Below, one piece after another: positions 4,472 to 47,615 of a stretch of 51,162 nt of DNA (position 1 is the first letter of the stretch; the number at the start of each line of letters is the position of its first letter). A program made the translations under genes and the position numbers. The stretch spans positions 1 to 51,162 of the forward strand of contig JAYEGE010000002.1 in NCBI GenBank assembly GCA_034658935.1, written 5' to 3'. The notes under the pieces are model-generated. The model worked only from the letters and a program-made list of their open reading frames with translations, was not told the DNA's origin and ran no database searches. The stretch comes from Patescibacteria group bacterium (GTDB lineage: Bacteria; Patescibacteriota; Minisyncoccia; Phycocordibacterales; JACOZG01).

Positions 4472-4503
4472 CCGAATTTGGACACGCCGTGTCCAAATTC
4501 GGA
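4471..4503. repeat. Palindromic element (aatttggacac family)
   Basis: tccgaatttggacac-gcc-gtgtccaaattcgga, 15-bp perfect arms. Confidence 0.85.
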
Positions 4504-17225: not shown

Positions 17226-18977
17226 TTATTTCTTCTCCCCCACTTCCTTCTTTAATTTGGTAATGAATTCGTCAACGCTTAGATTTTCTTTATCATCGCC
17301 ATCGCGGGATTCGATGGTTAGTTTTTTGTCGGCGACCTCCTTATCTCCCAAGACCACAGCGTAAGGCGCCTTCTCTAATTTCCAATTACGGATCTTCTTG
17401 CCCAGACTCTCGTCTGAATCGTCCAACTCGGCCCGCAAACCTTCGTCCTGCAGACTCGCCACTACTTCCTTAGCGAAGTCCATATGGGCCTCGCCGATAG
17501 GCAGAACCTTAACTTGGACTGGAGCCAGCCAAGTGGGCAACGAGCCGGCCGTGTGCTCAATAAGGATAGAGAGGAAACGCTCGATGGAACCCATAATAGC
17601 GGCGTGGATCATCACAATCCGCTCCTTCTCCCCTTTCTCATTAACACAGGTCAGGTCAAAGCGCTCGGGCATATTCATGTCTAGCTGGATAGTCGCTACT
17701 TGCCACTCCCGACCCAAGGAATCCTTGGCCATGAAGTCCAGCTTGGGGCCGTAGAAAGCGGCCTCGCCAGGAGCGTCGACATAATCGACCCCCTTCTCCT
17801 TAGCGATCGCTTCCAAAACAGACTCGGCCTCCTCCCAACTCTTCTCTTCGCCCAGATAATTCTCCATCTTCTCTGGATCATGGCGTGAGAGCCAAACCTC
17901 AATCTCAAAACCAAAAGCACCGTAGAACTCATGGACAATATCCCAGATTTTTAGAAACTCTTCCTTAACTTGTGAGGTCCGACAGAAGACGTGGGCATCG
18001 TCTTGAGTAAGACTGCGAGTGCGAGAGATACCAGCCAACTCCCCCGATTGCTCATCACGATAACACTTAGTAGTGCTAGCATAACGCTGAGGCAATTCTC
18101 TATAACTCCACAGCTTGCGAGCGTAGATTTGAGTGTGGTGCGGGCAATTCATTGGCTTCATCACAAACTCATGCCCCTCGCGCGTTTTGATTTGGAAGAG
18201 CTCGTCCTTAAATTTGTCCCAATGGCCACTAGTGATATAGAGATCCTTCTTGGTAATGTGAGGGATATCAACCAACACATAACCCTGCTCAGTCCGGAGT
18301 TCCCAAACAAAAGTGTCGAGTAAATTGCGGACTAAAGTCCCCTTCGGCGTCCAGAGCGGCAGGCCGCTCCCCACCAAATCAGAGAAGGTGAAGAGGTCTA
18401 GGGCTGGGCCCAGCTTCTTATGATCACGCTTAATAGCTTCCTCACGTTGTTTGCGATAATCGCCTAGCTCATCTTTAGTATCAAAGGCCAATCCGTAAAT
18501 TCGAGTTAGCATTTGGTTTTCCTCACTCCCCCGCCAATAAGCGCCGGACAGACGGTCGAGCTTGAAGGAGTCTGGCTTGATGTCCTTGGCGGGGTTTTCG
18601 TTATGTCCGCCGCGGCAAAGATCGGAAAAACCGGCGCAGGCGTAGAAAGTGACTTGTTCGCCTTTACCGGCAATCTCATCAATTAGTTCTAGCTTGTATG
18701 GATTGTCCTCGTATTCCTTCTTAGCTTCGTCAGGACTCATCTCACTATAATCAAAACTCCCCCAGGTGGGCAGGAGCTCCTGCATCTTCGCCTCAATCTT
18801 CTCTAAATCCTCTTCGCCAATTGGTTTAGTAAATTCAAAATCGTAATAGAAGCCGTCATCGACAGTCGGCCCAATAGCGTGCTTGGTGTCTGGCCAGAGT
18901 TCCAGCACAGCCGCCGCTAGTAAATGGGCCAAAGTATGCCGTTTATGGTCTAATCCCTCCTTGTTATCCTTGTTCAT
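17226..18977 (-). CDS. thrS: Threonine--tRNA ligase (no N-terminal TGS domain)
   Basis: RHTLAHLLA, DLCRGGH, GAYWRG, RDHKKLG, KPMNCPHH, YRDEQSGEL, AAFYGPKLD; ATG 18977. Confidence 0.97.
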   Translation of the reverse strand: MNKDNKEGLDHKRHTLAHLLAAAVLELWPDTKHAIGPTVDDGFYYDFEFTKPIGEEDLEKIEAKMQELLPTWGSFDYSEMSPDEAKKEYEDNPYKLELIDEIAGKGEQVTFYACAGFSDLCRGGHNENPAKDIKPDSFKLDRLSGAYWRGSEENQMLTRIYGLAFDTKDELGDYRKQREEAIKRDHKKLGPALDLFTFSDLVGSGLPLWTPKGTLVRNLLDTFVWELRTEQGYVLVDIPHITKKDLYITSGHWDKFKDELFQIKTREGHEFVMKPMNCPHHTQIYARKLWSYRELPQRYASTTKCYRDEQSGELAGISRTRSLTQDDAHVFCRTSQVKEEFLKIWDIVHEFYGAFGFEIEVWLSRHDPEKMENYLGEEKSWEEAESVLEAIAKEKGVDYVDAPGEAAFYGPKLDFMAKDSLGREWQVATIQLDMNMPERFDLTCVNEKGEKERIVMIHAAIMGSIERFLSILIEHTAGSLPTWLAPVQVKVLPIGEAHMDFAKEVVASLQDEGLRAELDDSDESLGKKIRNWKLEKAPYAVVLGDKEVADKKLTIESRDGDDKENLSVDEFITKLKKEVGEKK

Positions 18978-19028
18978 ATTGAGCCTAATATAGCATAAAG
19001 CGGCTGTGTCGTCTGCTACAATAACAGT

Positions 19029-19361
19029 ATGGCGAGAGATCAGGGATTTCACGATTACATAGTTTACGACCTATTGAGCGAGCTGCCGGACCTACGGTCG
19101 CGAGGGATGTTCGACGGCCATGGTTTGTATCAAAAGGATACCTTTTTTGGCTTCGTCAATGAAGGAGTACTTTATTTGAAAACTGGGGAAGCTGATCGCA
19201 GTGAATATAAGGAATACGGCTCTGCCCCCTTCTCCTACCCTCGAGCAGGCAAAACTGCCACCCTCCACACTTATTGGGCCGTGCCTGGAGAAATCTTAGA
19301 CGATCCTCCCCGCCTCCTCGAATGGGCCGAACGCGCAATCCAAGCCACACTTGATAAGTAA
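19029..19361 (+). CDS. TfoX/Sxy N-terminal domain protein
   Basis: RSRGMFDGHGLY...FGFVNEGVLYLK...PFSY...YWAVP...LLEWA. Confidence 0.85.
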   Translation: MARDQGFHDYIVYDLLSELPDLRSRGMFDGHGLYQKDTFFGFVNEGVLYLKTGEADRSEYKEYGSAPFSYPRAGKTATLHTYWAVPGEILDDPPRLLEWAERAIQATLDK

Positions 19362-19385
19362 ATTTGGACACTGCGTGTCCAAATT
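19361..19385. repeat. Palindromic element (aatttggacac family)
   Basis: aatttggacac-tgc-gtgtccaaatt at the tfoX stop. Confidence 0.85.
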
Positions 19386-19440: not shown

Positions 19441-20031
19441 TCATTCCCCCTCCTTAGGCGCGGAAGATAGGTCGAGTTGGGAGTCGATAACCATGTCGAC
19501 AAGCCCAAACTCAAGTGCCTCTTCTGCGGTCATGTCTTGGCCCTTCTTACATTCCCGCCTGATGGCCGCCACACTCTTACCGCTACGAGCGGCCAAGATA
19601 CGATAGAGTCGATCCTGACTTGCCTCCATACTAGTCTTGAGTGCCGCCAATCGTTTCGCATCTTGAATCACATCGAGACTGATTTCCCTTCTGGAAACGT
19701 GGTGGATCAAGAGCTGGGCATGCCGCGACGCAATTCTCTGGGTACAGGCCTGGAGTACCACAGCAGCCATGGACCTGGCGTAGCCGACGACCAAGCCAAT
19801 CTTCTTTCCTGGATACACCTGGAAAGCGTCGTAGATGTCGAGCCCGACCTCCACCAGACCCCCCTCACTACAGATAGAAATGGTGATCGGGGGAGAACCC
19901 CGAGCAACCAGGCGCAGAAGAGCCTCTCGTACATAGAGAGCAGTTTTACCTTCAACCTTCCCACCAATCTCAATGACCCCCCTATCCAGAAGATCGAGTT
20001 GAACCCTATTCAACTCATCATGTGACCACAT
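19441..20031 (-). CDS. Divergent ClpP-family protease subunit
   Basis: ICSEGG, ARSMAAVVL (Ser), LLIHH (His), MTAEEALEFGLVD; SD AGGGAGG. Confidence 0.85.
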   Translation of the reverse strand: MWSHDELNRVQLDLLDRGVIEIGGKVEGKTALYVREALLRLVARGSPPITISICSEGGLVEVGLDIYDAFQVYPGKKIGLVVGYARSMAAVVLQACTQRIASRHAQLLIHHVSRREISLDVIQDAKRLAALKTSMEASQDRLYRILAARSGKSVAAIRRECKKGQDMTAEEALEFGLVDMVIDSQLDLSSAPKEGE

Positions 20032-20395: not shown

Positions 20396-20413
20396 ATGCC
20401 ATAGTTTAAACAT

Positions 20414-20432
20414 TTGGACACTGAGCGTCCAA
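20414..20432. repeat. Degenerate copy of the ttggac...gtccaa palindrome
   Basis: ttggac-actgagc-gtccaa. Confidence 0.5.
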
Positions 20433-20572
20433 GAAAAAGCCCCCTTCTGTAATGGGATTGAAAAAACGTGCCCACTGTGATAGAAAAGGACTAGAATAGT
20501 CCGTCGGCGCGTAGCCGATTTGTCAGCCGTAGGCTGACTTTTGACATCAAACCAGAGAAAGGGAGAAACACC

Positions 20573-21247: not shown

Positions 21248-21347
21248 GCGTGCAACAAAACGCGTTTGGTTACCACACAGCCCCCCTAATTCGCTACGGC
21301 GAACGGGGGGTTATTTTTTACTTGGAGGTTTAGCCTCCAAGTGGAGT

Positions 21348-22430
21348 TTACAAGCCTTCTTTTTTCAGCTCCTCCATCAGCTTCTTGGCTTGGCGAGAGA
21401 GTCTGGTTGGAGTAGAAACAATAACTTTAATTAAAAGGTCGCCACGTTTATTGGGCCCAGTATGTACTCCCTTATTACGCACCCGGAGAAACTCACCAGA
21501 GGAGATTCCCGCAGGAATTTTAAGATTTAAATCACCATCGAGAGTTTTGAGTTTTTGTTCGGCGCCGAGAATAGCGTCTGAAAATTTAACCTTCAAGTCC
21601 ATCAACAGATTGGCCCCCTCACGCCGGAAAATTGCGTGCTTATCAACATGAACCCGGACATATAGGTCACCAGCCACACCGCCAGTAATCGCCTCGCCTC
21701 TGCCAGAGAGGCGGATCATCTCACCATTCTCCAGCCCAGCTGGAATCTTGATTTTGATCTCCTCAGTTTTCTTAAGAGTGCCATGACCCCCGCAAGCCTT
21801 GCAACCCTTCTCTGGCACCTTACCACTCCCTCGACAGGCTTCGCATTCACGAGCCACATTAATTACTCCCAAGAAGGAGCGGCGACTCTCTTGGATCTTA
21901 CCTTGCCCATTACAAGTCGAGCAGGTCTTCAATTCAGTACCTGGTTCCGCCCCCTTGCCATCACAAGTATCGCAAACACCAATCTTATTTATTAAAACCT
22001 GACGTTCAGTACCGAAAACCGAATCAGCAAAAGAAATCTGAATATCGACGGAGATATCCCGCCCCCTTTTAGTCTGGCCCCCACCACGCCGGCCGCCAAA
22101 CATATCGCCAAAGATATCGCCTAAGTCGAAAGCAAAGCCACTGCCAGAAGCGTCGCCGCCAGAGAAATTAGTGAAGTCCCAACCACCGGCATTGCCAGCA
22201 CCACCGCCCATACCACCACCAGAGCCAGCGGAGCCAAAGGTGTCGTATTGTTGGCGCTTACTGTCGTCGCCGAGCACCTGGTATGCCTCGTTGACCTCCT
22301 TGAATTTGCCCTCATCACCATTCTTCTTATCGGGGTGATACTTATGGGCTAATTTATGGAAGGCCTTCTTAACGTCGTCTTTAGAGGCGCCTTTTTCAAT
22401 CCCCAAAATTTGATAATAATCCTTAGACAT
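21348..22430 (-). CDS. dnaJ: Chaperone DnaJ
   Basis: J domain with HPD, G/F region, four CxxCxGxG-type repeats. Confidence 0.98.
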   Translation of the reverse strand: MSKDYYQILGIEKGASKDDVKKAFHKLAHKYHPDKKNGDEGKFKEVNEAYQVLGDDSKRQQYDTFGSAGSGGGMGGGAGNAGGWDFTNFSGGDASGSGFAFDLGDIFGDMFGGRRGGGQTKRGRDISVDIQISFADSVFGTERQVLINKIGVCDTCDGKGAEPGTELKTCSTCNGQGKIQESRRSFLGVINVARECEACRGSGKVPEKGCKACGGHGTLKKTEEIKIKIPAGLENGEMIRLSGRGEAITGGVAGDLYVRVHVDKHAIFRREGANLLMDLKVKFSDAILGAEQKLKTLDGDLNLKIPAGISSGEFLRVRNKGVHTGPNKRGDLLIKVIVSTPTRLSRQAKKLMEELKKEGL

Positions 22431-32863: not shown

Positions 32864-32892
32864 AGACTATCATATTATGAAGTGGTTGTCAA
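32864..32892 (-). promoter_or_regulatory. Promoter TTGACA-N17-TAGTCT whose -35 lies in the last alaS codons
   Basis: alaS ends TTG ACA ACC ACT TCA TAA, supplying TTGACA. Confidence 0.55.
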
Positions 32893-34743
32893 GGTCGCCT
32901 TAATGCGGCGGATGCCGGCGGAGGTTGCTTCTTCTTTTTTGATTTTGAAAACCAGGTCGCCATCGGGGCCAGTCAAATCAGCGGTATTGCTAACATGCGG
33001 TCCGCCGCAGAACTCGATTGAAAAGGCCTCATCAAATTGTGGATCCTCGGCAGTAGCGTCAGCTGGGCCCACCGAGTAGACGGAGACTCGCTCTGGATAC
33101 TTAGCGCCAAACTCATGTTCAGCATTTAATTTCTCAGCTTCCTCAGAAGCCATCTCGGTATGGAGTACCGGCAGACCCTCCTTTATCTTTTCATTTACGG
33201 TTTTCTCCACCTCTTGCTTTTGCTCGTCGGTCATCTTCTGTCTATAAATAAAATCGATCCGCAAGCGCTCGGCAGTGATATTACTCCCCCGCTGTTTAAC
33301 CTCTGGCCCAAGAACTATCTGTAGAGCCTTGAGTAGCAAGTGGTGGGCGGTGTGCAAGCGAGTCGTCACCTCTGACGCATCAGCCAGCCCACCCTTAAAT
33401 TTTTGATCGAGGCCCGCTTTTGAGGCCTCCCTATGCTTCTTCATTTGTTTATCAAACTTAGCTTCGTTGATCGTCGTCCCCTTCTCCTGGGCCAATTCTT
33501 TAGTCAACTCAATAGGGAAACCATAACTAGTGAAGAGGATAAAGGGGTCAGTTCCTTTTTCAAATTCCTTTAACCCCCGAGTCAGGGTTACTCTGAACTT
33601 ATCTTCTTCATTCTGGATTTCCTCTGCAATCTTTGAACTTTGGTCTTTGACATTGGAGTAAGTCTCCGCGTACTGATCAGCCACAATGTTCACCAATTCT
33701 GACAACCCACCCGACTTGATCCCCAAAACATCCCCATATCGCACTGCCCGGCGGAGGAGACGGCGGAGAACATAGGCCTGTTCAACATTGCCCGGCTTTA
33801 CTCCGGCAGCAATGAGAAACACTGAGGCTTTAATGTGATCGGCTACGATCCGCATTGCCTTCTTGTCCTCTCCCCAACATTCAGGTTCTATGTCGTAACC
33901 CAAGTCGCCCTTGATAAAACAGTATTTTTTGCCACTTAACTCCTCTATTTTTTTGATAATCTCAGCGTGATTGGCCAAGAAGATATCGCTATTGTTCTGA
34001 GCAGCCATCGTTAAGCGTTCTAGACCGCCGCCAAAATCTACGTTGCGTCGTGGGAGCATAGTGAAGCTGCCCTCAGTCCTCTGATATTCCATGAAGACGT
34101 TATTGCCAATCTCGAGGAAGCGCCCACAATCACAATTAGGATGGCATTTCTTGCCGAACTTGGGATCATGCTCAACATTCTCAAATTCGTAGAATACCTC
34201 CGAGTCTGGCCCGCCCGGTTCACCTGCCGGCATACCCTGTGGCGGACCAGAGCGGCTCCACCAATTCTTCCCCACACCATAGAAAGCAATTTGGTCTTCA
34301 GGAATTCCTAATTCTTTCCAAATAGCAGCTGACTCGGTATCACGAGGCAACTTAAATTCCTCGTTACCCTCAAAGCAAGTCACCCAAAGACGCTCCTTGG
34401 ATACGCCAAGCTCTTTTGTTAGAAATTCAAAAAACCAACCCAATTGCTCTTGTTTGAAATAATCCCCCAAAGACCAATTGCCAAGCATTTCAAAAAAGGT
34501 GGTATGCCTATTGTCCCCCACCTCATCAATATCAATTGCCCGGAAACATTTCTGAGAATCGGCTACCCGTTGGCCCTCTGGATGATCCTTGCCCAAGAGG
34601 TACGGGATTAGCGGCTGCATACCCGAACCAGTGAAGAGGGTTGAGGGATCATTTTCAGGCACCAAAGAGGCCGGGGGCAAGATGGTATGTCCTCGCGCTT
34701 GAAAAAAGTCCAGGTAGCGCTTGCGAACTTCGTTAGCGGTCAT
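32875..34743 (-). CDS. alaS: Alanine--tRNA ligase, short form without the C-Ala domain
   Basis: LFTGSGMQP, HTTFFEMLGNWS, DFGGGLER, ADHIK, HTAHHLL, EFCGGPHV. Confidence 0.97.
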   Translation of the reverse strand: MTANEVRKRYLDFFQARGHTILPPASLVPENDPSTLFTGSGMQPLIPYLLGKDHPEGQRVADSQKCFRAIDIDEVGDNRHTTFFEMLGNWSLGDYFKQEQLGWFFEFLTKELGVSKERLWVTCFEGNEEFKLPRDTESAAIWKELGIPEDQIAFYGVGKNWWSRSGPPQGMPAGEPGGPDSEVFYEFENVEHDPKFGKKCHPNCDCGRFLEIGNNVFMEYQRTEGSFTMLPRRNVDFGGGLERLTMAAQNNSDIFLANHAEIIKKIEELSGKKYCFIKGDLGYDIEPECWGEDKKAMRIVADHIKASVFLIAAGVKPGNVEQAYVLRRLLRRAVRYGDVLGIKSGGLSELVNIVADQYAETYSNVKDQSSKIAEEIQNEEDKFRVTLTRGLKEFEKGTDPFILFTSYGFPIELTKELAQEKGTTINEAKFDKQMKKHREASKAGLDQKFKGGLADASEVTTRLHTAHHLLLKALQIVLGPEVKQRGSNITAERLRIDFIYRQKMTDEQKQEVEKTVNEKIKEGLPVLHTEMASEEAEKLNAEHEFGAKYPERVSVYSVGPADATAEDPQFDEAFSIEFCGGPHVSNTADLTGPDGDLVFKIKKEEATSAGIRRIKATLTTTS

Positions 34744-35247: not shown

Positions 35248-37638
35248 TCATTGAAATAATTGTTTTAATGAACCCCATACCTCTGTCTTTTTAAAGATAG
35301 CATTTAGATAATCTTCATCTATCTCCCCGCTTATGTTAATCGGTAAGAATATCTTTAATTGATCAACTTTATTTTCATAGCATTTTCTGCCGTAAGAAAA
35401 ACGCCATTTTAGACTATTTATCTGTGTAACAAAGAATAGTAAGGTCGAAAATTTATATTCTCTTAGTGGCTTACATAAGAGTACGTTGTCTTTTGCTGTA
35501 AATTGATAATAATGATAAAAACTTGTTAGGGGTGCCCCGTCTGAAGCTATTGTTATTGCATTTTGTAGTATGTGTTTCTTATTTTCTATATTATAAAATC
35601 CTTCAAAACCACAATCAACACTGACACAAGATACTAAAGGAATTTTTCCCTCATCTAACTCACTACTTTTGTGATAGTTACCTGTCTTAATTGGTGCCTC
35701 AAACAAGTCTGTTAATAAGAATTCTTTCCATTGGACATTCTCATCATAAGCTGAATTTGAAAAAAACTTTTTTTCTTTTTCTATAACGTTCTTTTTAAAT
35801 TCGTTGAGTCTGTTGTATTTTATCATTGAAGAGATGAAATTTCTCATTTCAATATCAATTCTCTTATACAAAACATCATCACTTGGTTTTTTTTCATCTA
35901 GGTAGACTTGCGGTAACAATTCAAGATTTTTATCTTGGAAATCAATCTTTTCAGTTTTTATAAATTCCTCAATATTTCTGATTTTCATTGAGGGATCTTT
36001 TATAAAATCCTTTACTATATCAGCGATTTCATTTAACTGGTTTGGCTCTTTTTTGTTAGATATTCTTTTTCCTTTAACCTTTAAAAAGCCGTCTTTATCA
36101 ACTTTTACCCATAAGACATTTTGGTTATGGTTGTGAGAAACTCCTTTTTTTATATAAAAACCTAATGTATGAGTGCCAACAGGATAAAATAAGTCCATTG
36201 GAAATGTAACAACCGACAAGAGTGTGTTTTTCTTCAACATCTCAGTTCTCCATTGAATAAATTTTGCTTGTTTTACTAACGCCCCAACAGGAAGGACACA
36301 AAATAGGATACCCCCGTCCTGCATTTGGTTTAACGCTTGTTCAATAAATTCAAATTCTTTTTTTTCCTGACTAAAAGGAGGATTTATCATCACCTTTGTT
36401 ATTGGTCGTATTCTATCTTCTTCATTTTTATCAAGATATTCCGCTTTGATATCTCCACTTTCTGTTCTTGATACAGCAAGCCATTTATTAAAACAATTCC
36501 CTTCGATCATGTTTGTTTTTCCATCACCTCTAAAAATCATATTCACAATGGCGAGAGAAATAATCGGATCTTGTTCTTCTATCCCATAGATGCCATTCTG
36601 TTTAAAGTTTTCAAATTCTTTTTTATCTTTTGTCTTTCTTTTAACTTCATCATAAGCAGATACAAGAAATCCGCCTGTTCCACAGGCCAGATCTAAAACT
36701 AAATCATGTGCGTCAATGTCTAATGTATATGATGCAAACCTTGTTATATGTCGTGGGGTTAACACAATACCGATTTCTTTTGCACCGTTTCCGTATTTCA
36801 AAAATACTTCATAAAATTCTCCTAAAACATCTCTACCAGAGTTCATTGCTGATCGGATATTCAAATCAAGCAACTTTTGATAAGTCCTTTTTATGGCGTC
36901 TTTTACTTTTACATGGTTATCCTCACTTGAAGGCTCATCTATTCTTATAAATTTTGCAAAATCTTGTTTTTTATGATTTCGTAAAATCAGTTCAACTTTT
37001 TTATTTACGTTATTTATTAAAACAAGGGCGTTTTCATTTAGATTCAAATTTTCACCCGTGGTCATTGATAAAAGTATTGCTGACATGAATCTAGCACGAT
37101 AATCTTTGTTTATTGAGTTTTCATGTAAAATCTTGTTGACTTCAATTGCTGTTTTTAAAAATTCATCTTCAGAAATCTCAATGTCTTCGATAAGGGCAGA
37201 CTTATTTTTTAAAATAGTATCTATTTGTTGTAAAGATAAAATGCTTGTTATTTCAACATCATTTTCTTTAATTAGATCCCAATTACTACCATTAAAATAG
37301 TAACTTTTAGAGATATACCCCTCATCTTCATTCCCCGCAACACCAGTAACAAAAAGGACTTTAATTTTTTTACTCTGGTTTATTTTTTTTGCGTATTGAT
37401 TTTTTGCCTCGTCGATAGCTATTTCTATTTTTGATTTTTCATTTTTACCCTCAATTACATAGAAGATTTCTTCTTTTACTTTTATTACGTTTTCAGGTCT
37501 ATCTAAGACTAGATATTTTTTTACTTCTTCTATAGTTAAACATTCCTGTTGAGTATAAACATTTTTTTTATCCCAACCCTTTTTTAGGATCTCATCTAAG
37601 ATATATTTATAACATGCAACTTCTGATTTCTTTATCAT
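35248..37638 (-). CDS. Single-chain restriction-modification enzyme (nuclease + N6-adenine MTase + TRD; type IIG/IIB-like)
   Basis: N-terminal PENV...IEGK nuclease-like motif, LDLACGTGGFL, NPPF, C-terminal HsdS-like TRD; visibly AT-rich. Confidence 0.88.
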   Translation of the reverse strand: MIKKSEVACYKYILDEILKKGWDKKNVYTQQECLTIEEVKKYLVLDRPENVIKVKEEIFYVIEGKNEKSKIEIAIDEAKNQYAKKINQSKKIKVLFVTGVAGNEDEGYISKSYYFNGSNWDLIKENDVEITSILSLQQIDTILKNKSALIEDIEISEDEFLKTAIEVNKILHENSINKDYRARFMSAILLSMTTGENLNLNENALVLINNVNKKVELILRNHKKQDFAKFIRIDEPSSEDNHVKVKDAIKRTYQKLLDLNIRSAMNSGRDVLGEFYEVFLKYGNGAKEIGIVLTPRHITRFASYTLDIDAHDLVLDLACGTGGFLVSAYDEVKRKTKDKKEFENFKQNGIYGIEEQDPIISLAIVNMIFRGDGKTNMIEGNCFNKWLAVSRTESGDIKAEYLDKNEEDRIRPITKVMINPPFSQEKKEFEFIEQALNQMQDGGILFCVLPVGALVKQAKFIQWRTEMLKKNTLLSVVTFPMDLFYPVGTHTLGFYIKKGVSHNHNQNVLWVKVDKDGFLKVKGKRISNKKEPNQLNEIADIVKDFIKDPSMKIRNIEEFIKTEKIDFQDKNLELLPQVYLDEKKPSDDVLYKRIDIEMRNFISSMIKYNRLNEFKKNVIEKEKKFFSNSAYDENVQWKEFLLTDLFEAPIKTGNYHKSSELDEGKIPLVSCVSVDCGFEGFYNIENKKHILQNAITIASDGAPLTSFYHYYQFTAKDNVLLCKPLREYKFSTLLFFVTQINSLKWRFSYGRKCYENKVDQLKIFLPINISGEIDEDYLNAIFKKTEVWGSLKQLFQ

Positions 37639-37717: not shown

Positions 37718-38902
37718 TTATGTAATAATGGTATACACGCCGATAACTCCCCCACCCAGCATTTTTTGCTTATCGTAGATAACACAGGACTGACCCAAGG
37801 CCAAAGCTGGAGGCGGCTTGAGAAATTCCACTTTATCACCATCGACTCGGCACTCATAAAGTTCCCCATGATAGCGAACCTGCGCCTGGTAAGTTTTACC
37901 ACTGTCCGGTGACGCACCAGAGATCCAGTTGATATTTGTGAGTGTGGCCCACTTGGACATTGAATGTCCAAGTGACTCATTCTGACTTGGACATTCAATG
38001 TCCAAGTTGCCGTCCAAATTATGGGCAACCACTAATTGGTTCTTTTTGATATCCTTGGCAACTACATAATATGGTTTGTCGCCTGACGTCTTCTTGGTGA
38101 TAGTAAAACCGTGGCGTTCACCAATAGTACAAAAGACAGCCCCATCATGTCGGCCGATTATTCCCCCCTTCTCATTTAATACTTGCCCGCGTTTCTCTGG
38201 GATAAACTTTTTCAAAAAATCCTTCACTGATAATTGACCGATGAAGCACAGACCCTGACTATCTTTCTTCTCAGCGTTCGGCAGGCCAAATTTCCTGGCT
38301 AATTTTCGCACCGCCTCTTTTTTGTATTTACCAATGGGGAACAAGCAATGCTCGAGCTCGGCTTGAGTGAGAATCCAAAGGAAATAAGATTGATCCTTGG
38401 CTGGGTCTTTACCTCGCAATAACTTGAACTTGGACATTGAATGTCCAAGTGACTCATTCTGACTTGGACATTCAATGTCCAAGTTATTCGAACGGGCATA
38501 ATGTCCCGTCGCCATCCGCCAGTCGGCGGACCCCGCTCGCTTCATCGCCCAATCGAAAAAGGCGCCAAACTTAATCTCTTGATTGCACATCACGTCAGGG
38601 TTGGGTGTCCGGCCGGCCCTATATTCACCCACCATATAATCCACCACTTCGTCTTTGTATTCTTTAGATAGATCAATGGTTAGTAATGGGATATCTAGAT
38701 GGGCCGCCGCCCGCATCGCCTCTCGGCGTTCTTCACGCCAGGTGCATTCTATTCCCCACTCCTCATTGAAATCAGTTATCTTTATGAAAACGCCCACCAC
38801 CTCATGGCCTTCTCCCCGCAACAAAGCTGCCGCGACAGAAGAATCAACTCCTCCGGACATGCCTACATAAACCTTTTTCTTTTTTCCAGGCCGCTTCTTC
38901 AT
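37718..38902 (-). CDS. mnmA: tRNA-specific 2-thiouridylase with two 19-aa palindrome-derived inserts
   Basis: GMSGGVDSSVAA, PNPDVMCN, ATGHYAR, KDQSYFL, DSQGLCFIG, ALGQSCVIY; ATG 38902. Confidence 0.96.
   Translation of the reverse strand: MKKRPGKKKKVYVGMSGGVDSSVAAALLRGEGHEVVGVFIKITDFNEEWGIECTWREERREAMRAAAHLDIPLLTIDLSKEYKDEVVDYMVGEYRAGRTPNPDVMCNQEIKFGAFFDWAMKRAGSADWRMATGHYARSNNLDIECPSQNESLGHSMSKFKLLRGKDPAKDQSYFLWILTQAELEHCLFPIGKYKKEAVRKLARKFGLPNAEKKDSQGLCFIGQLSVKDFLKKFIPEKRGQVLNEKGGIIGRHDGAVFCTIGERHGFTITKKTSGDKPYYVVAKDIKKNQLVVAHNLDGNLDIECPSQNESLGHSMSKWATLTNINWISGASPDSGKTYQAQVRYHGELYECRVDGDKVEFLKPPPALALGQSCVIYDKQKMLGGGVIGVYTIIT
37951..38008. repeat. 58-nt double-palindrome insert in mnmA, copy 1
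   Basis: acttggacattgaatgtccaagtgactcattctgacttggacattcaatgtccaagtt. Confidence 0.95.
38428..38485. repeat. 58-nt double-palindrome insert in mnmA, copy 2 (identical)
   Basis: Same 58 nt; both copies encode NLDIECPSQNESLGHSMSK. Confidence 0.95.
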
Positions 38903-38958
38903 TCCTTTCAATTTAGCTTTTTGACGCGAGTGAGGCAAATCAGTATCATAAGGAAACT

Positions 38959-44633: not shown

Positions 44634-47615
44634 TCAAAGCGCCACGAAGTTGATAAGTCGGCCAGGTACATAAACCACCTTCTTGACCTCCTTGTCTTCC
44701 AACCACTTGTCAATCTTCTGACTCCTCAGGGCTAGCTCCTTGGCCCCCACCTCATCAATGTCTTGTTGAGCCTCGACACTGTCTCTGACCACCCCGTTGA
44801 CCTGGATAACCAGGGTAAAACTATCGCTTACCAGATATTGAGGATCAGCTTCCGGCCAAGGGGCAAGATGGATGGAATCGGTATGTCCCAACTGATTCCA
44901 TAGCTCTTCAGTGATATGTGGAGCTAGAGGGGCTAAAAGTTTCAGGAAGATCTCCCAACTAGCTTGATCAATCTTCTCTACCTTTTCCATAACTCCAACC
45001 AGAATCATCAAAGCTGAAACTGCAGTATTAAAACGCATGGCCTCAATATCTTCAGTGACTTTTTTTATGGTTCCGTAAAGCTGGTGCAAAACAGTCAGCG
45101 GCGGAGTCGACTCAAGAGAATTCTCGTCGGTATCGGAGCCCTTTAGGGTAAAGCCGCGAGAATTCTCTTGGGTCGACGGAGCCTGAATCCCCGATCCCAA
45201 TCTCCACACCTTCTCCAAAAACCTCCTCGGCCCAACAATCCCGTCAGTACTCCAAACAACCGACTGGTCAAAGGGCCCGATAAACATCTCGTAAAGCCGT
45301 AAAGTGTCAGCCCCAAACTTCTCAACAATAGAATCAGGGTTAATCACATTGCCCTTGGACTTGCTCATCTTCTCGCCGCCCTCGGCTAAAATCATCCCGT
45401 GCGAGGTCCGCTTGGCGTAAGGCTCATCGGCCAACACCACTCCAATATCAAAAAGAAACTTGTGCCAGAAACGCGAGTACAGTAAGTGGAGAGTGGTATG
45501 CTCCATCCCACCGTTATACCAATCTATGGGAGTCCAATATTTTAATTTATCTGGTGAAGCAAGTTCCTTGCTATTATGCGGATCACAATAACGCAGATAA
45601 TACCAAGACGAGCCAGCCCAATTAGGCATCACGTCGGTTTCCCGCCGCGCCGCGCCACCACATTGTGGACAGGTAGTATTGACCCACTCCTCAATATTGG
45701 CCAGCGGCGACTCCCCAGTATCTGTAGGCTCATATTTATCAACCTTAGGTAACTCCACCGGCAATTGATCTTCAGGCACCGCAAACCAACCAGGATTTGT
45801 TTTCTCTCCCTCATTCTTGAATCCTGAATCTTGCTTCTTAAATCTTTCCGCGCAGTCTTTGCAAAAAACAAGCGGAATCGGCTCCCCCCAATATCTCTGC
45901 CGACTAAAGATCCAATCACGGAGTTTGTAAGTAGTCTTCATCTCTCCACCAACAAACTTAGTAATTTCCTCCTTCGCCTCTTCTGAATCTAAACCGTCGA
46001 ATTGACCGGAGTTTATTAGTTCTCCTTCATCTATGTATGCCTGTTCAGGGCCAAGAAAACGCCTGACGCCAATCACGTTGTGAGAATGAGTAACCTGGTT
46101 TAATAACTCATCACCGCTAATCCAAATCGGTTCGAGTTTGTCTTGTTCTTCTGCCGAACGAGCCTCTGGTTCGTCTACTACTAATTCTAAAAGTACAGGT
46201 TGATCTAAACGATGCCGCCAAACATCTTTGTTCTCGGCAAAAAAATGCATCACCACCTCTCCGCCTAGTTTCTTGATCGGCTTAACTTGATAACCAGTTT
46301 CTTCAAGTACTTCTCTGGTTGCCGCCTCTTCTGACGTTTCCCCGTCATCGATACCGCCAATTGGTAAAGACAACCAGCCAAATTTTTTCCACTTAACAGC
46401 GAGAAACTTACCGTCACTAGGTCGCCGAACTATCGCCGTAATCGTGCGTCTAAATTCTGCTCCTTTATGCGGCTCACCAAAAACTGGCCGAATTACCTCC
46501 TTGATCGGCAAATCGTATTTCTTAGCAAACTCAAAATCGCGCTCGTCATGAGCTGGTACAGCCATCACCGCGCCAGTACCGTAATGGGGCAATACATAAT
46601 CAGCAACAAAGATGGGAACCTGCTCCTGGTTAGCAGGGTTGATCGCGTAAAAGCCTTCCAATTTAACACCGGTTTTCTCCCTGTCCTCGGCAGTCCGTTC
46701 AATGTCTGTCTTCTTTTTGACTTCCTCGAGGTATTTCTTCACCTCGTCAAAATTGGTAATGCCCCCCTCTCCCTCTGGTCTAGGCGCGGATTCGTATTCT
46801 CGGATGAGAGCATGTTCCGGGGCAACGGCCACGTAAGTTGCACCAAATAAGGTGTCTGGCCTAGTAGTAAAAACCTCGATTTCCTTTTTTGATATTCCTT
46901 TGGACTTTGAACCTTGGACTTTGAACTTCATTGTCGCGCCTTGGCTGGGCCCAATCCAATTACGTTGCTGAGTTTTAGCCCGCTCGATATAATCCACCTT
47001 TTCTAAATCATCATAGAGTCGCTGGGCATACTTAGTGATCCGCAAGAGCCATTGTTCCTTCTCTTTCTTCTCCACCTCGCCCCCACAACGTTCACATCGG
47101 CTGTCCACCACCTCCTCATTAGCCAAACCAATTTTACAGCTGGGACACCAATTGATTGTAGTTTTCTCTTTATAGGCCAGCCCCTTCTTAAACATCTGGA
47201 GGAAAATCCATTGAGTCCATTTATAATAGGCCGGGTCAGTAGTATTAACTTCCCGTGACCAATCGAAGGAGAGGCCGAGCGATTTCAATTGCTGGCGATA
47301 ATTAGCGGCATTCTCCGCAGTAATTTCCTGAGGGTCTCGGCCAACCTTAATGGCATAATTCTCAGCCGGTAAACCGAAAGCGTCCCAACCCATGGGGTAA
47401 AGAACGTTGCGGCCCTCCATCCTTAATTTACGAGCAACAATGTCCATGGCGGTGTAGCTCCGAACATGACCGGTATGTAACCCCTCACCAGATGGGTAAG
47501 GGAATTCGACTAGAGTGTAATACTTTTTACCCTCGTCCTTGGTCTGGTAGATACCGGACTCTTCCCATTTGCGTTGCCAACGATTTTCGATTTCTTTATG
47601 GTCGTAATCTTTCAT
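44634..47615 (-). CDS. leuS: Leucine--tRNA ligase with an inserted Nudix domain and a palindrome-derived insert
   Basis: FPYPSGEGLHTGH, GWDAFGLPAEN, FTTRPDTLFG, GTGAVMAVPAHD, KMSKSKGN. Confidence 0.97.
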   Translation of the reverse strand: MKDYDHKEIENRWQRKWEESGIYQTKDEGKKYYTLVEFPYPSGEGLHTGHVRSYTAMDIVARKLRMEGRNVLYPMGWDAFGLPAENYAIKVGRDPQEITAENAANYRQQLKSLGLSFDWSREVNTTDPAYYKWTQWIFLQMFKKGLAYKEKTTINWCPSCKIGLANEEVVDSRCERCGGEVEKKEKEQWLLRITKYAQRLYDDLEKVDYIERAKTQQRNWIGPSQGATMKFKVQGSKSKGISKKEIEVFTTRPDTLFGATYVAVAPEHALIREYESAPRPEGEGGITNFDEVKKYLEEVKKKTDIERTAEDREKTGVKLEGFYAINPANQEQVPIFVADYVLPHYGTGAVMAVPAHDERDFEFAKKYDLPIKEVIRPVFGEPHKGAEFRRTITAIVRRPSDGKFLAVKWKKFGWLSLPIGGIDDGETSEEAATREVLEETGYQVKPIKKLGGEVVMHFFAENKDVWRHRLDQPVLLELVVDEPEARSAEEQDKLEPIWISGDELLNQVTHSHNVIGVRRFLGPEQAYIDEGELINSGQFDGLDSEEAKEEITKFVGGEMKTTYKLRDWIFSRQRYWGEPIPLVFCKDCAERFKKQDSGFKNEGEKTNPGWFAVPEDQLPVELPKVDKYEPTDTGESPLANIEEWVNTTCPQCGGAARRETDVMPNWAGSSWYYLRYCDPHNSKELASPDKLKYWTPIDWYNGGMEHTTLHLLYSRFWHKFLFDIGVVLADEPYAKRTSHGMILAEGGEKMSKSKGNVINPDSIVEKFGADTLRLYEMFIGPFDQSVVWSTDGIVGPRRFLEKVWRLGSGIQAPSTQENSRGFTLKGSDTDENSLESTPPLTVLHQLYGTIKKVTEDIEAMRFNTAVSALMILVGVMEKVEKIDQASWEIFLKLLAPLAPHITEELWNQLGHTDSIHLAPWPEADPQYLVSDSFTLVIQVNGVVRDSVEAQQDIDEVGAKELALRSQKIDKWLEDKEVKKVVYVPGRLINFVAL
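45106..45177. repeat. Long inverted repeat inside leuS
   Basis: 21-nt arms gtcgactcaagagaattctcg / cgagaattctcttgggtcgac (20/21), 30-nt spacer. Confidence 0.9.

Follow-up and report, generated by a model that had tools for sequence, protein, structure and literature searches.

Two identical copies of a palindromic element lie in frame within mnmA, which encodes the tRNA 2-thiouridine synthase, on contig JAYEGE010000002.1 of a Patescibacteria group bacterium (GCA_034658935.1); positions 1 to 51,162 of this contig make up the whole stretch analysed here, referred to below as the window. We consider it very probable that each 57-nt sequence is a REPIN—two inverted units of the repetitive extragenic palindrome (REP) type with a short spacer between them—of a family that extends across the Patescibacteria, or Candidate Phyla Radiation (CPR), and is partnered by a REP-associated tyrosine transposase (RAYT). 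The feature is an intragenic REPIN doublet resembling the Rickettsia palindromic elements (RPEs), and it has most, though not all, of the properties that define REP-RAYT systems. An earlier reading of the same DNA, made from its letters alone (the sequence-only reading), had proposed an RPE-like palindromic element inserted in frame in loops; this was upheld and widened, the element being one of many copies in CPR housekeeping genes. We prefer 'REPIN' to 'RPE-like' as the more precise label, because the element has both a family and a candidate mobilising RAYT.

A repeat search of the window recovered two 58-nt copies, 100% identical, at 37951-38008 and 38428-38485 (477 nt from start to start), and no further copy in the 51 kb, with a chance expectation of 0 from 100 shuffles. 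The doublet core accounts for 57 nt, the 58th common base being a single flanking one. Each core consists of an arm ACTTGGACATT-G-AATGTCCAAGT (23 nt), a spacer GACTCATTCTG (11 nt) and a second arm ACTTGGACATT-C-AATGTCCAAGT (23 nt); each arm is palindromic by itself, the two arms are exact reverse complements, and folding of either strand gives a 23-bp hairpin with a dG of -38 to -43 kcal/mol (z approximately -9). Translated in the mnmA frame, each doublet encodes the 19 residues NLDIECPSQNESLGHSMSK, and the peptides across the insert junctions include ARSNNLDIECPS, NNLDIECPS, HSMSKFKLL and HSMSKWATL. We found no target-site duplication at the window copies, whose flanks (CCC|...|TGC and TGA|...|TAT) share no direct duplication, and the window contained neither an Rfam 15 match at gathering thresholds nor an intron signature. 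The sequence-only reading had described two exact in-frame copies at this distance, each of two palindromes, one following TGHYARS and the other preceding WATLTNINW, in a gene with intact frame and catalytic motifs, and it was right in every detail.

The host gene product is a recognisable MnmA, in which Pfam delimits a HUP domain (residues 21-234), a PRC barrel (239-306) and a C-terminal barrel (332-399), and which has 7997 homologs at E<=1e-30, named as Patescibacteria/CPR. The PP-loop SGGVDS (residue 28) and both catalytic cysteines (in DVMCN, 115-119, and GLCF, 229-232) are present and invariant in alignments. An AlphaFold2 (AF2) model reached a pLDDT of 87.7 overall and a pTM of 0.86, with low values only at the N-terminus and in the two inserts. 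The site-1 insert (residues 152-170; pLDDT ~60, without secondary structure) caps a beta-hairpin made of strands 148-153 and 170-175, and at site 2 residues 313-326 (pLDDT <50) belong to the linker that leads from strand 301-305 to strand 329-338 of the C-terminal barrel. Modelling of the loop positions, which had been suggested as a check, thus placed both inserts in low-confidence loops; the two 19-residue segments are predicted to be disordered, and MnmA most likely functions despite two extra floppy loops.

Among 120 CPR MnmAs, the loop between TGHY and KDQSYFL spans 15-53 residues and holds many repeat-like inserts, though many of these proteins have a short, unit-free loop (baseline 15-20 aa) and many orthologs are without any insert. 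This loop is evidently very permissive, with at least two unrelated selfish-element families using it. The second of these is a GC-rich double hairpin, CCCCTCTCC-N3-GGAGAGGGG plus CCCTTCCCC-N3-GGGGAAGGG, carried without an open reading frame (ORF) by P0003 and P0007 and giving peptides of the form PSPSPKERG...PSPLGKGQG; in P0006, hairpins of this kind flank a whole nested DUF559/PF18741 endonuclease domain (a 190-aa loop). At site 2, palindromes without the ACTTGG termini described below also occur, AATGGTAGCGCTC-C-GAGCGCTACCATT in P0047 and TGTTAAACAT-CCG-ATGTTTAACA in P0007 (L001:3904-3930; L004 site 2).

The family to which the window units belong is defined by its termini. An MnmA 52% identical to that of the window (P0047) carries the same 23+11+23 doublet at the identical codon, with the termini ACTTGG...CCAAGT in common and an interior that is different and self-complementary. 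A scan of one genome per species (185,579 species), with termini fixed and interiors and spacer free, returned 64 loci where a rough arithmetic estimate gives about 0.1; 52 of the 64 are labelled as CPR lineages, and several metagenome-assembled genomes (MAGs) have many copies (JAGMBS01, for example, recurs in L014, L015, L029, L030, L051 and L058). The family unit is 23 nt long, ACTTGG-N4-N3-N4-CCAAGT, with a 10-bp stem and a 3-nt loop, and its 6-bp stem foot (ACTTGG/CCAAGT) is conserved while the upper stem covaries: in a set of 107 distinct units, two-sided compensatory changes number 30-52 at each of the four unconstrained stem pairs, and paired cells amount to 95.3% versus 83.8% in shuffles (0/500), with slid-partner controls at 18-48%. 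Doublets with identical arms are inverted in 28 cases and direct in 8. The exact 23-nt unit of the window is present in more than 120 metagenome contigs, mostly from groundwater. Among the matches listed, 138 oriented units have symmetric flanks, (C/T)(C/A)|unit|(G/T)G, which amount to a 2-bp stem extension; beyond it, these flanks contain no target motif or target duplication, and hence none of the direct-repeat signal by which a miniature inverted-repeat transposable element (MITE) would be recognised.

Some matches to the termini were set aside. The five on viral contigs all come from a single orthologous phage locus, whose interiors are not palindromic, and are unrelated; those in Planctomycetaceae (L007, L027, L040, L048) and Neobacillus (L009), likewise non-palindromic inside, are coding repeats. 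Two loci in the MAG CAZHDT01 (L017, L057), labelled 'uncultured Gammaproteobacteria', are genuine palindromic units, reflecting either a mislabelled or contaminated bin or a family that extends beyond the CPR. The window itself holds four arms and four single family units (Table 1); a terminator role for the intergenic ones was considered and dropped, as judged by eye the T-run is on the wrong side at 4476 and 21320 for the adjacent minus-strand genes. A further stretch with family termini and a poorly palindromic interior, ACTTGGACTGGAGCCAGCCAAGT at 17512-17534 in a class-II aminoacyl-tRNA synthetase gene (17226-19052, minus strand), represents a unit in decay or else matches by chance.

Copies within genes are common, often as additional surface loops in essential proteins, and they tend to respect the reading frame. 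In-frame doublets were found in hosts confirmed by Pfam as PheT, LigA (two genomes), TopA, GltX, GatB, enolase, UvrA, UvrC, TsaD, FolD, GAPDH, SMC, glycosyltransferases (GT1) and, in four further genomes, MnmA. Within a set of 63 CPR doublets, lengths divisible by three occurred in 18 of 24 genic copies versus 12 of 39 non-genic ones (Fisher p=8e-4), although 'genic' here means lying in a long open frame, which biases that class towards frame-keeping copies. Genic spacers measure 5, 8, 11 or 14 nt. The conserved termini have no stop codon in any frame and so yield three peptide signatures (xLxxxxPS, LGxxxxK and TWxxxxQV), and genic copies use all three stop-free frames with many spacer lengths. 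The strictly extragenic location expected of a REP was not observed, with 61 of 141 units of the window variant (43%), among the matches listed, and 24 of the 63 CPR doublets lying in open frames (>=150 aa for the former). Host genes of the window variant, again among the matches listed, include triosephosphate isomerase (TIM, at least 17 contigs), GatB, a Mur ligase and RsmE. Different variants have struck the same codon position in the GatB_N/GatB_Yqey linker, and one TIM site is common to at least 17 contigs. In PheT of a Paceibacterota MAG (L014:1383-3815), an NlpC/P60 domain is nested between B3_4 and B5, besides an in-frame doublet.

A candidate for the mobilising enzyme emerged from gene context. 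At five genome loci, units flank an open frame of ~220 aa, and these ORFs are mutually homologous. The RAYT ORFs, of ~215 aa, match Pfam Y1_Tnp (PF01797) at 24.7-32.5 bits against a gathering cut-off of 23, and all share an invariant HxH motif and YxNxN tyrosine. Database homologs were used to build an AF2 model (pLDDT 79), whose top Foldseek match was 4er8_A (E=1.4e-5, probability 1.00), followed by the IS608 and ISDra2 TnpA; the 4ER8 structure shows TnpA_REP, the REP-associated tyrosine transposase of E. coli, in complex with a REP hairpin (PMC3479197). Relatives number 3195 at E<=1e-10, some of them named RayT by JGI. A unit lies ~15 nt upstream of the RAYT start in 11 of 11 genes and 6-18 nt past the stop in 7 of 11, these flanking units being of the same variant, and at least seven metagenome RAYT genes are associated with the exact variant of the window, the association of RAYT and unit being known from related contigs. 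The RAYT genes also contain one or two in-frame units of their own (LGxxxxK), at two conserved positions that fall in low-confidence loops of the model. Two such units are present in 63 of 120 RAYT genes, where agreement over the four free residues is 3.41/4 within a protein and 1.32/4 between proteins; in other words, the in-frame copies match within a gene and differ between genomes. In the window, the ORF at 19441-20031, between two single units, was entertained as a RAYT and turned out to be ClpP.

The mnmA sites appear to be older than the doublets that now occupy them. The nearest ortholog, P0002 (63% identity, syntenic Zip-MnmA), had looked like an empty-site allele in the protein alignment; its DNA refutes this, with a single unit, ATTTGGACAC-GAA-GTGTCCAAAT, at both sites (translated IGHEVSK and HLDTKCPN) and a right-hand junction at site 1 that is the same as in the window. 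Just upstream of the site-2 doublet, the window retains a half-unit that matches the left half of the P0002 single unit at this site in a codon-level comparison with L189, and that is probably the remnant of an older unit. Family doublets occupy the same MnmA loop as site 1 in L054, L056, L020 and L030, and in the window, L056 and L054 they follow the same codon (TGHYxxxN). The spacer of the window matches that of L056 at 8 of 11 positions (p ~0.001), and doublets in other genes have unrelated spacers. The arm interiors in the comparison of window, L056 and L054 are ACATTGAATGT, CAATCGGATTG and TAATCAAGTTA, the two arms agreeing within each gene; the L054 and L056 proteins are 77% identical, yet both arms differ in parallel.

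The single units present at each site of P0002, and the same-codon doublets of L054 and L056, mean that the sites were not newly invaded. We infer from these comparisons that they are ancient and that the hairpins have been renewed or homogenised, with one doublet probably copied whole from the other site (site 1 to site 2, or in the opposite direction). The claim of the sequence-only reading that the element was recently active therefore stands in part: the 58/58 identity, spacer included, fits recent copying of whole doublets, but the sites were not empty ones freshly entered, and the search for empty sites in sister alleles that it had recommended met, in the nearest ortholog, a single unit at each. 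The pattern that it had named as contrary to its view, segments shared among orthologs as ancient divergent loops, was found by half, in that the sites are old while the segments are perfect, genome-specific hairpins rather than drifting loops.

We propose the following route. The RAYT would bind a folded single-stranded hairpin (for example, ACTTGGACATTGAATGTCCAAGT), cut at the conserved stem foot and join the cut strand to single-stranded DNA elsewhere, with a preference for positions in or next to a unit already present. In coding DNA, copies would persist only if they were in frame, free of stops and in permissive loops. Both mnmA loops would already have been occupied, by family units, in a common ancestor with the nearest relatives, and the doublet would then have been copied whole between sites (probably from site 1 into the older unit at site 2) or homogenised, either of which would explain the 58/58 identity. 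The doublets would be transcribed and translated as two disordered 19-residue loops that leave the catalytic core intact, and no host benefit need be assumed.

Several observations weigh against a REPIN-RAYT assignment. The only NCBIfam match of the RAYT ORFs, REP_Tyr_transpos, scores far below its cut-off, and HMMER against the PDB, run with one sequence and with a 10-sequence profile, finds no solved RAYT, so that assignment to the RAYTs depends on the Pfam match, the motifs, the fold and the gene context. No RAYT is encoded in the 51-kb window, where tblastn with five RAYTs returned only noise; the 138 flanks, among the matches listed, lack the GTAG/CGTC tag of the published REP superfamilies (cf. 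PMC3733652); and no other copy of the 57-nt doublet with its spacer appears among the metagenome matches listed. To these must be added the bias of the genic class noted above, and the fact that the role of the RAYT as mobiliser, the position of its cut and the production of the insert peptides are inferred. A more specific proposal is that hairpins at fixed sites in essential genes are neither simply inherited nor re-inserted: at both MnmA loops, in the GatB linker, in TIM and at two positions within the RAYT gene, the variant that the RAYT of the genome currently handles would replace the resident one in place, hairpin for hairpin, at the ACTTGG/CCAAGT foot. We regard this as possible, though doubtful. 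If true, peptide loops of core enzymes would evolve in concert with the DNA specificity of a transposase, and the two units within the RAYT gene could serve in self-targeting or autoregulation.

That an active element jumped recently and de novo, twice, into empty mnmA loops was the view of the sequence-only reading, and the complete identity of the copies, together with the short unit-free loops showing that empty sites exist in the family, would suit it; we nevertheless find it unlikely, given the family units of P0002 at both sites (with the shared right-hand junction at site 1), the half-unit flanking the site-2 doublet, and the L054 and L056 doublets with related spacers at the identical codon. 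It is quite improbable that the hairpins serve the host in mnmA, whether as a regulatory RNA or DNA structure (an RNase III site, a pause site or a protein-binding palindrome) or as useful loops near the tRNA, since the same units lie in dozens of unrelated genes and between genes, the peptide follows from the palindromic DNA and varies freely from genome to genome, many orthologs have no insert, and the inserts of the window are modelled as disordered. Some observations do lean towards such a function: the same two loops hold perfect palindromes in many lineages, including palindromes of unrelated families, and REPs elsewhere have been assigned roles in mRNA stability and termination (PMC3733652).

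Removal of the hairpins from the mRNA by an intron-like excision (cleavage and religation), leaving MnmA without the extra residues, had already been rated as less likely in the sequence-only reading, and we concur in judging it very improbable. Precise excision would require neither lengths divisible by three nor the absence of stops, and genic copies are enriched for the former and are stop-free; because they keep the frame, the hairpins are better read as translated than as spliced out. The use of all three stop-free frames and many spacer lengths, the lack of an Rfam family or intron signature in the window, and the position of the inserts in model loops able to accommodate them argue in the same direction, against the perfect 23-bp RNA hairpin formed by each doublet and the existence in animals of an mRNA excision system triggered by inverted repeats (PMC12779559). 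An assembly or amplification artefact, with collapsed or chimeric palindromes, is scarcely credible. Amplification chimeras can yield palindromes and the window is a metagenome contig seen once (P0001: one contig), but removal of either copy restores a colinear MnmA with nothing missing or duplicated, independent assemblies of other studies show the same architecture at the same site, and over 120 other contigs carry the unit.

Table 1. Features of the window and of related loci (window positions unless a locus is named; a dot marks features given without strand).
Feature	Location	Strand	Details
mnmA (tRNA 2-thiouridine synthase), host gene	37718..38938	-	406 aa; Pfam PF03054, PF20259, PF20258
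REPIN-like doublet, site 1	38428..38484	-	arms 38428-38450 and 38462-38484, spacer 38451-38461; residues 152-170, after TGHYARSN
REPIN-like doublet, site 2	37951..38007	-	arms 37951-37973 and 37985-38007, spacer 37974-37984; residues 311-329, in the linker from PRC barrel to C-terminal barrel, directly before KWATLTNINW
Putative half-unit remnant	38012..38020	-	coding AATTTGGAC, residues N-L-D; just upstream of the site-2 doublet
Single intergenic unit	4476..4498	.	ATTTGGACACGCCGTGTCCAAAT
Single intergenic unit	19362..19384	.	ATTTGGACACTGCGTGTCCAAAT; 57 nt downstream of clpP
Degenerate single unit	20412..20434	.	ATTTGGACACTGAGCGTCCAAGA
Single unit	21320..21342	.	ACTTGGAGGTTTAGCCTCCAAGT; 5 nt past the stop of dnaJ (21348-22430, minus strand)
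RAYT genes with in-frame own units	L090:1162-1806; L174:3282-3926; L115:9468-10112; L059:3023-3676; others
Same-codon loci	L044:2979-3032; L183:3147; L070:1027; L186:1528; L112:235		TIM loci, e.g. L096:7970
GC-rich hairpin loci	P0006; L003:1184-2368; L004:319-1452

Two further features of the window lie outside the repeat family. Between the AlaRS gene (32875-34743) and mnmA, a minus-strand gene at 35248-37638 encodes a 796-aa N6 DNA methylase protein in a stretch of 33% GC (window ~47% GC); the syntenic relative L003 has MnmA and AlaRS side by side, and because of this the stretch looks like an inserted restriction-modification island. The leucyl-tRNA synthetase encoded at 44634-47615 (minus strand, 993 aa) has a NUDIX domain (residues 389-505) nested after its editing domain.

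The literature searched (including PMC6006769) contains no description of REPs, REPINs or in-frame palindromes in CPR/Patescibacteria, and a CPR-wide family of REP-type mobile hairpins has apparently not been described before. For mnmA alone the consequence is modest and the interest moderate; it is higher for the pattern across the family. REPIN-RAYT systems appear to extend to Patescibacteria, and to be abundant there. The family would explain odd insertions of 8-20 residues in CPR housekeeping proteins that are otherwise taken as lineage-specific loops or annotation noise, and the turnover of variants at the same site makes it a clean system in which to follow the co-evolution of a repeat population and its transposase. 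It also offers a concrete, testable mobilising enzyme for in-frame palindromic insertions, a mechanism that has been open since the Rickettsia RPEs.

Those elements, reportedly described by Ogata et al. in 2000, are one close parallel. Like RPEs and intragenic REPs, the CPR units are in-frame palindromic repeats in housekeeping genes that preserve the ORF and add peptide at tolerated positions, they occur as singles, dimers and clusters, and replication and repair hosts (uvrA, ligase, topoisomerase) are prominent. They differ in sequence family, unit size (RPE-1 being ~100-150 bp) and host, and in that a cognate RAYT can be named and same-site turnover is visible; with a Patescibacteria host and a comparison made by layout, the window element is at most an analogue of RPEs. 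Di Nocera et al. (2013) listed intragenic GTAG and CGTC REPs, many of whose hosts act in replication and repair, and identified Rickettsia RPE-4 and RPE-6 as CGTC REPs (PMC3733652).

The REP/REPIN-RAYT ('REPtron') systems of Proteobacteria (Nunvar 2010, PMC2817692; Bertels & Rainey 2011, PMC3116915; Messing 2012, PMC3479197; Corneloup 2021, PMC8266576) share with the CPR family a short hairpin unit, inverted doublets with short spacers, what appear to be many dispersed copies, a Y1/HUH gene flanked by cognate units, a unit sequence that co-varies with genome and RAYT, and persistence of units at orthologous positions; a group of perfect-palindrome REPs has already been described among them. 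In contrast to those systems, the conserved part of the CPR family is the 6-bp stem foot, without a GTAG/CGTC tag, the in-frame intragenic share is large (43% of the window variant, among the matches listed), one or two in-frame units lie within the RAYT gene itself, and variant turnover is visible at the same site; the host phylum is Patescibacteria, and the RAYT, at ~215 aa, has a distinct C-terminal half and a similarity to 4ER8 that HMMER does not detect. With IS200/IS605 elements and their ORF-less derivatives (PATEs), the family has in common the transposase superfamily, recognition of single-stranded hairpins and the lack of target-site duplication, whereas the distinct left and right ends and fixed 4-5-nt target of IS200/IS605 have no counterpart here in an asymmetric flank or target motif. 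The coding palindromes of Nematomorpha mitochondria (PMC6649704) are likewise perfect inverted repeats in coding sequence with both arms translated, but those are long, gene-specific and confined to an organelle, whereas the CPR units form a dispersed family with a transposase.

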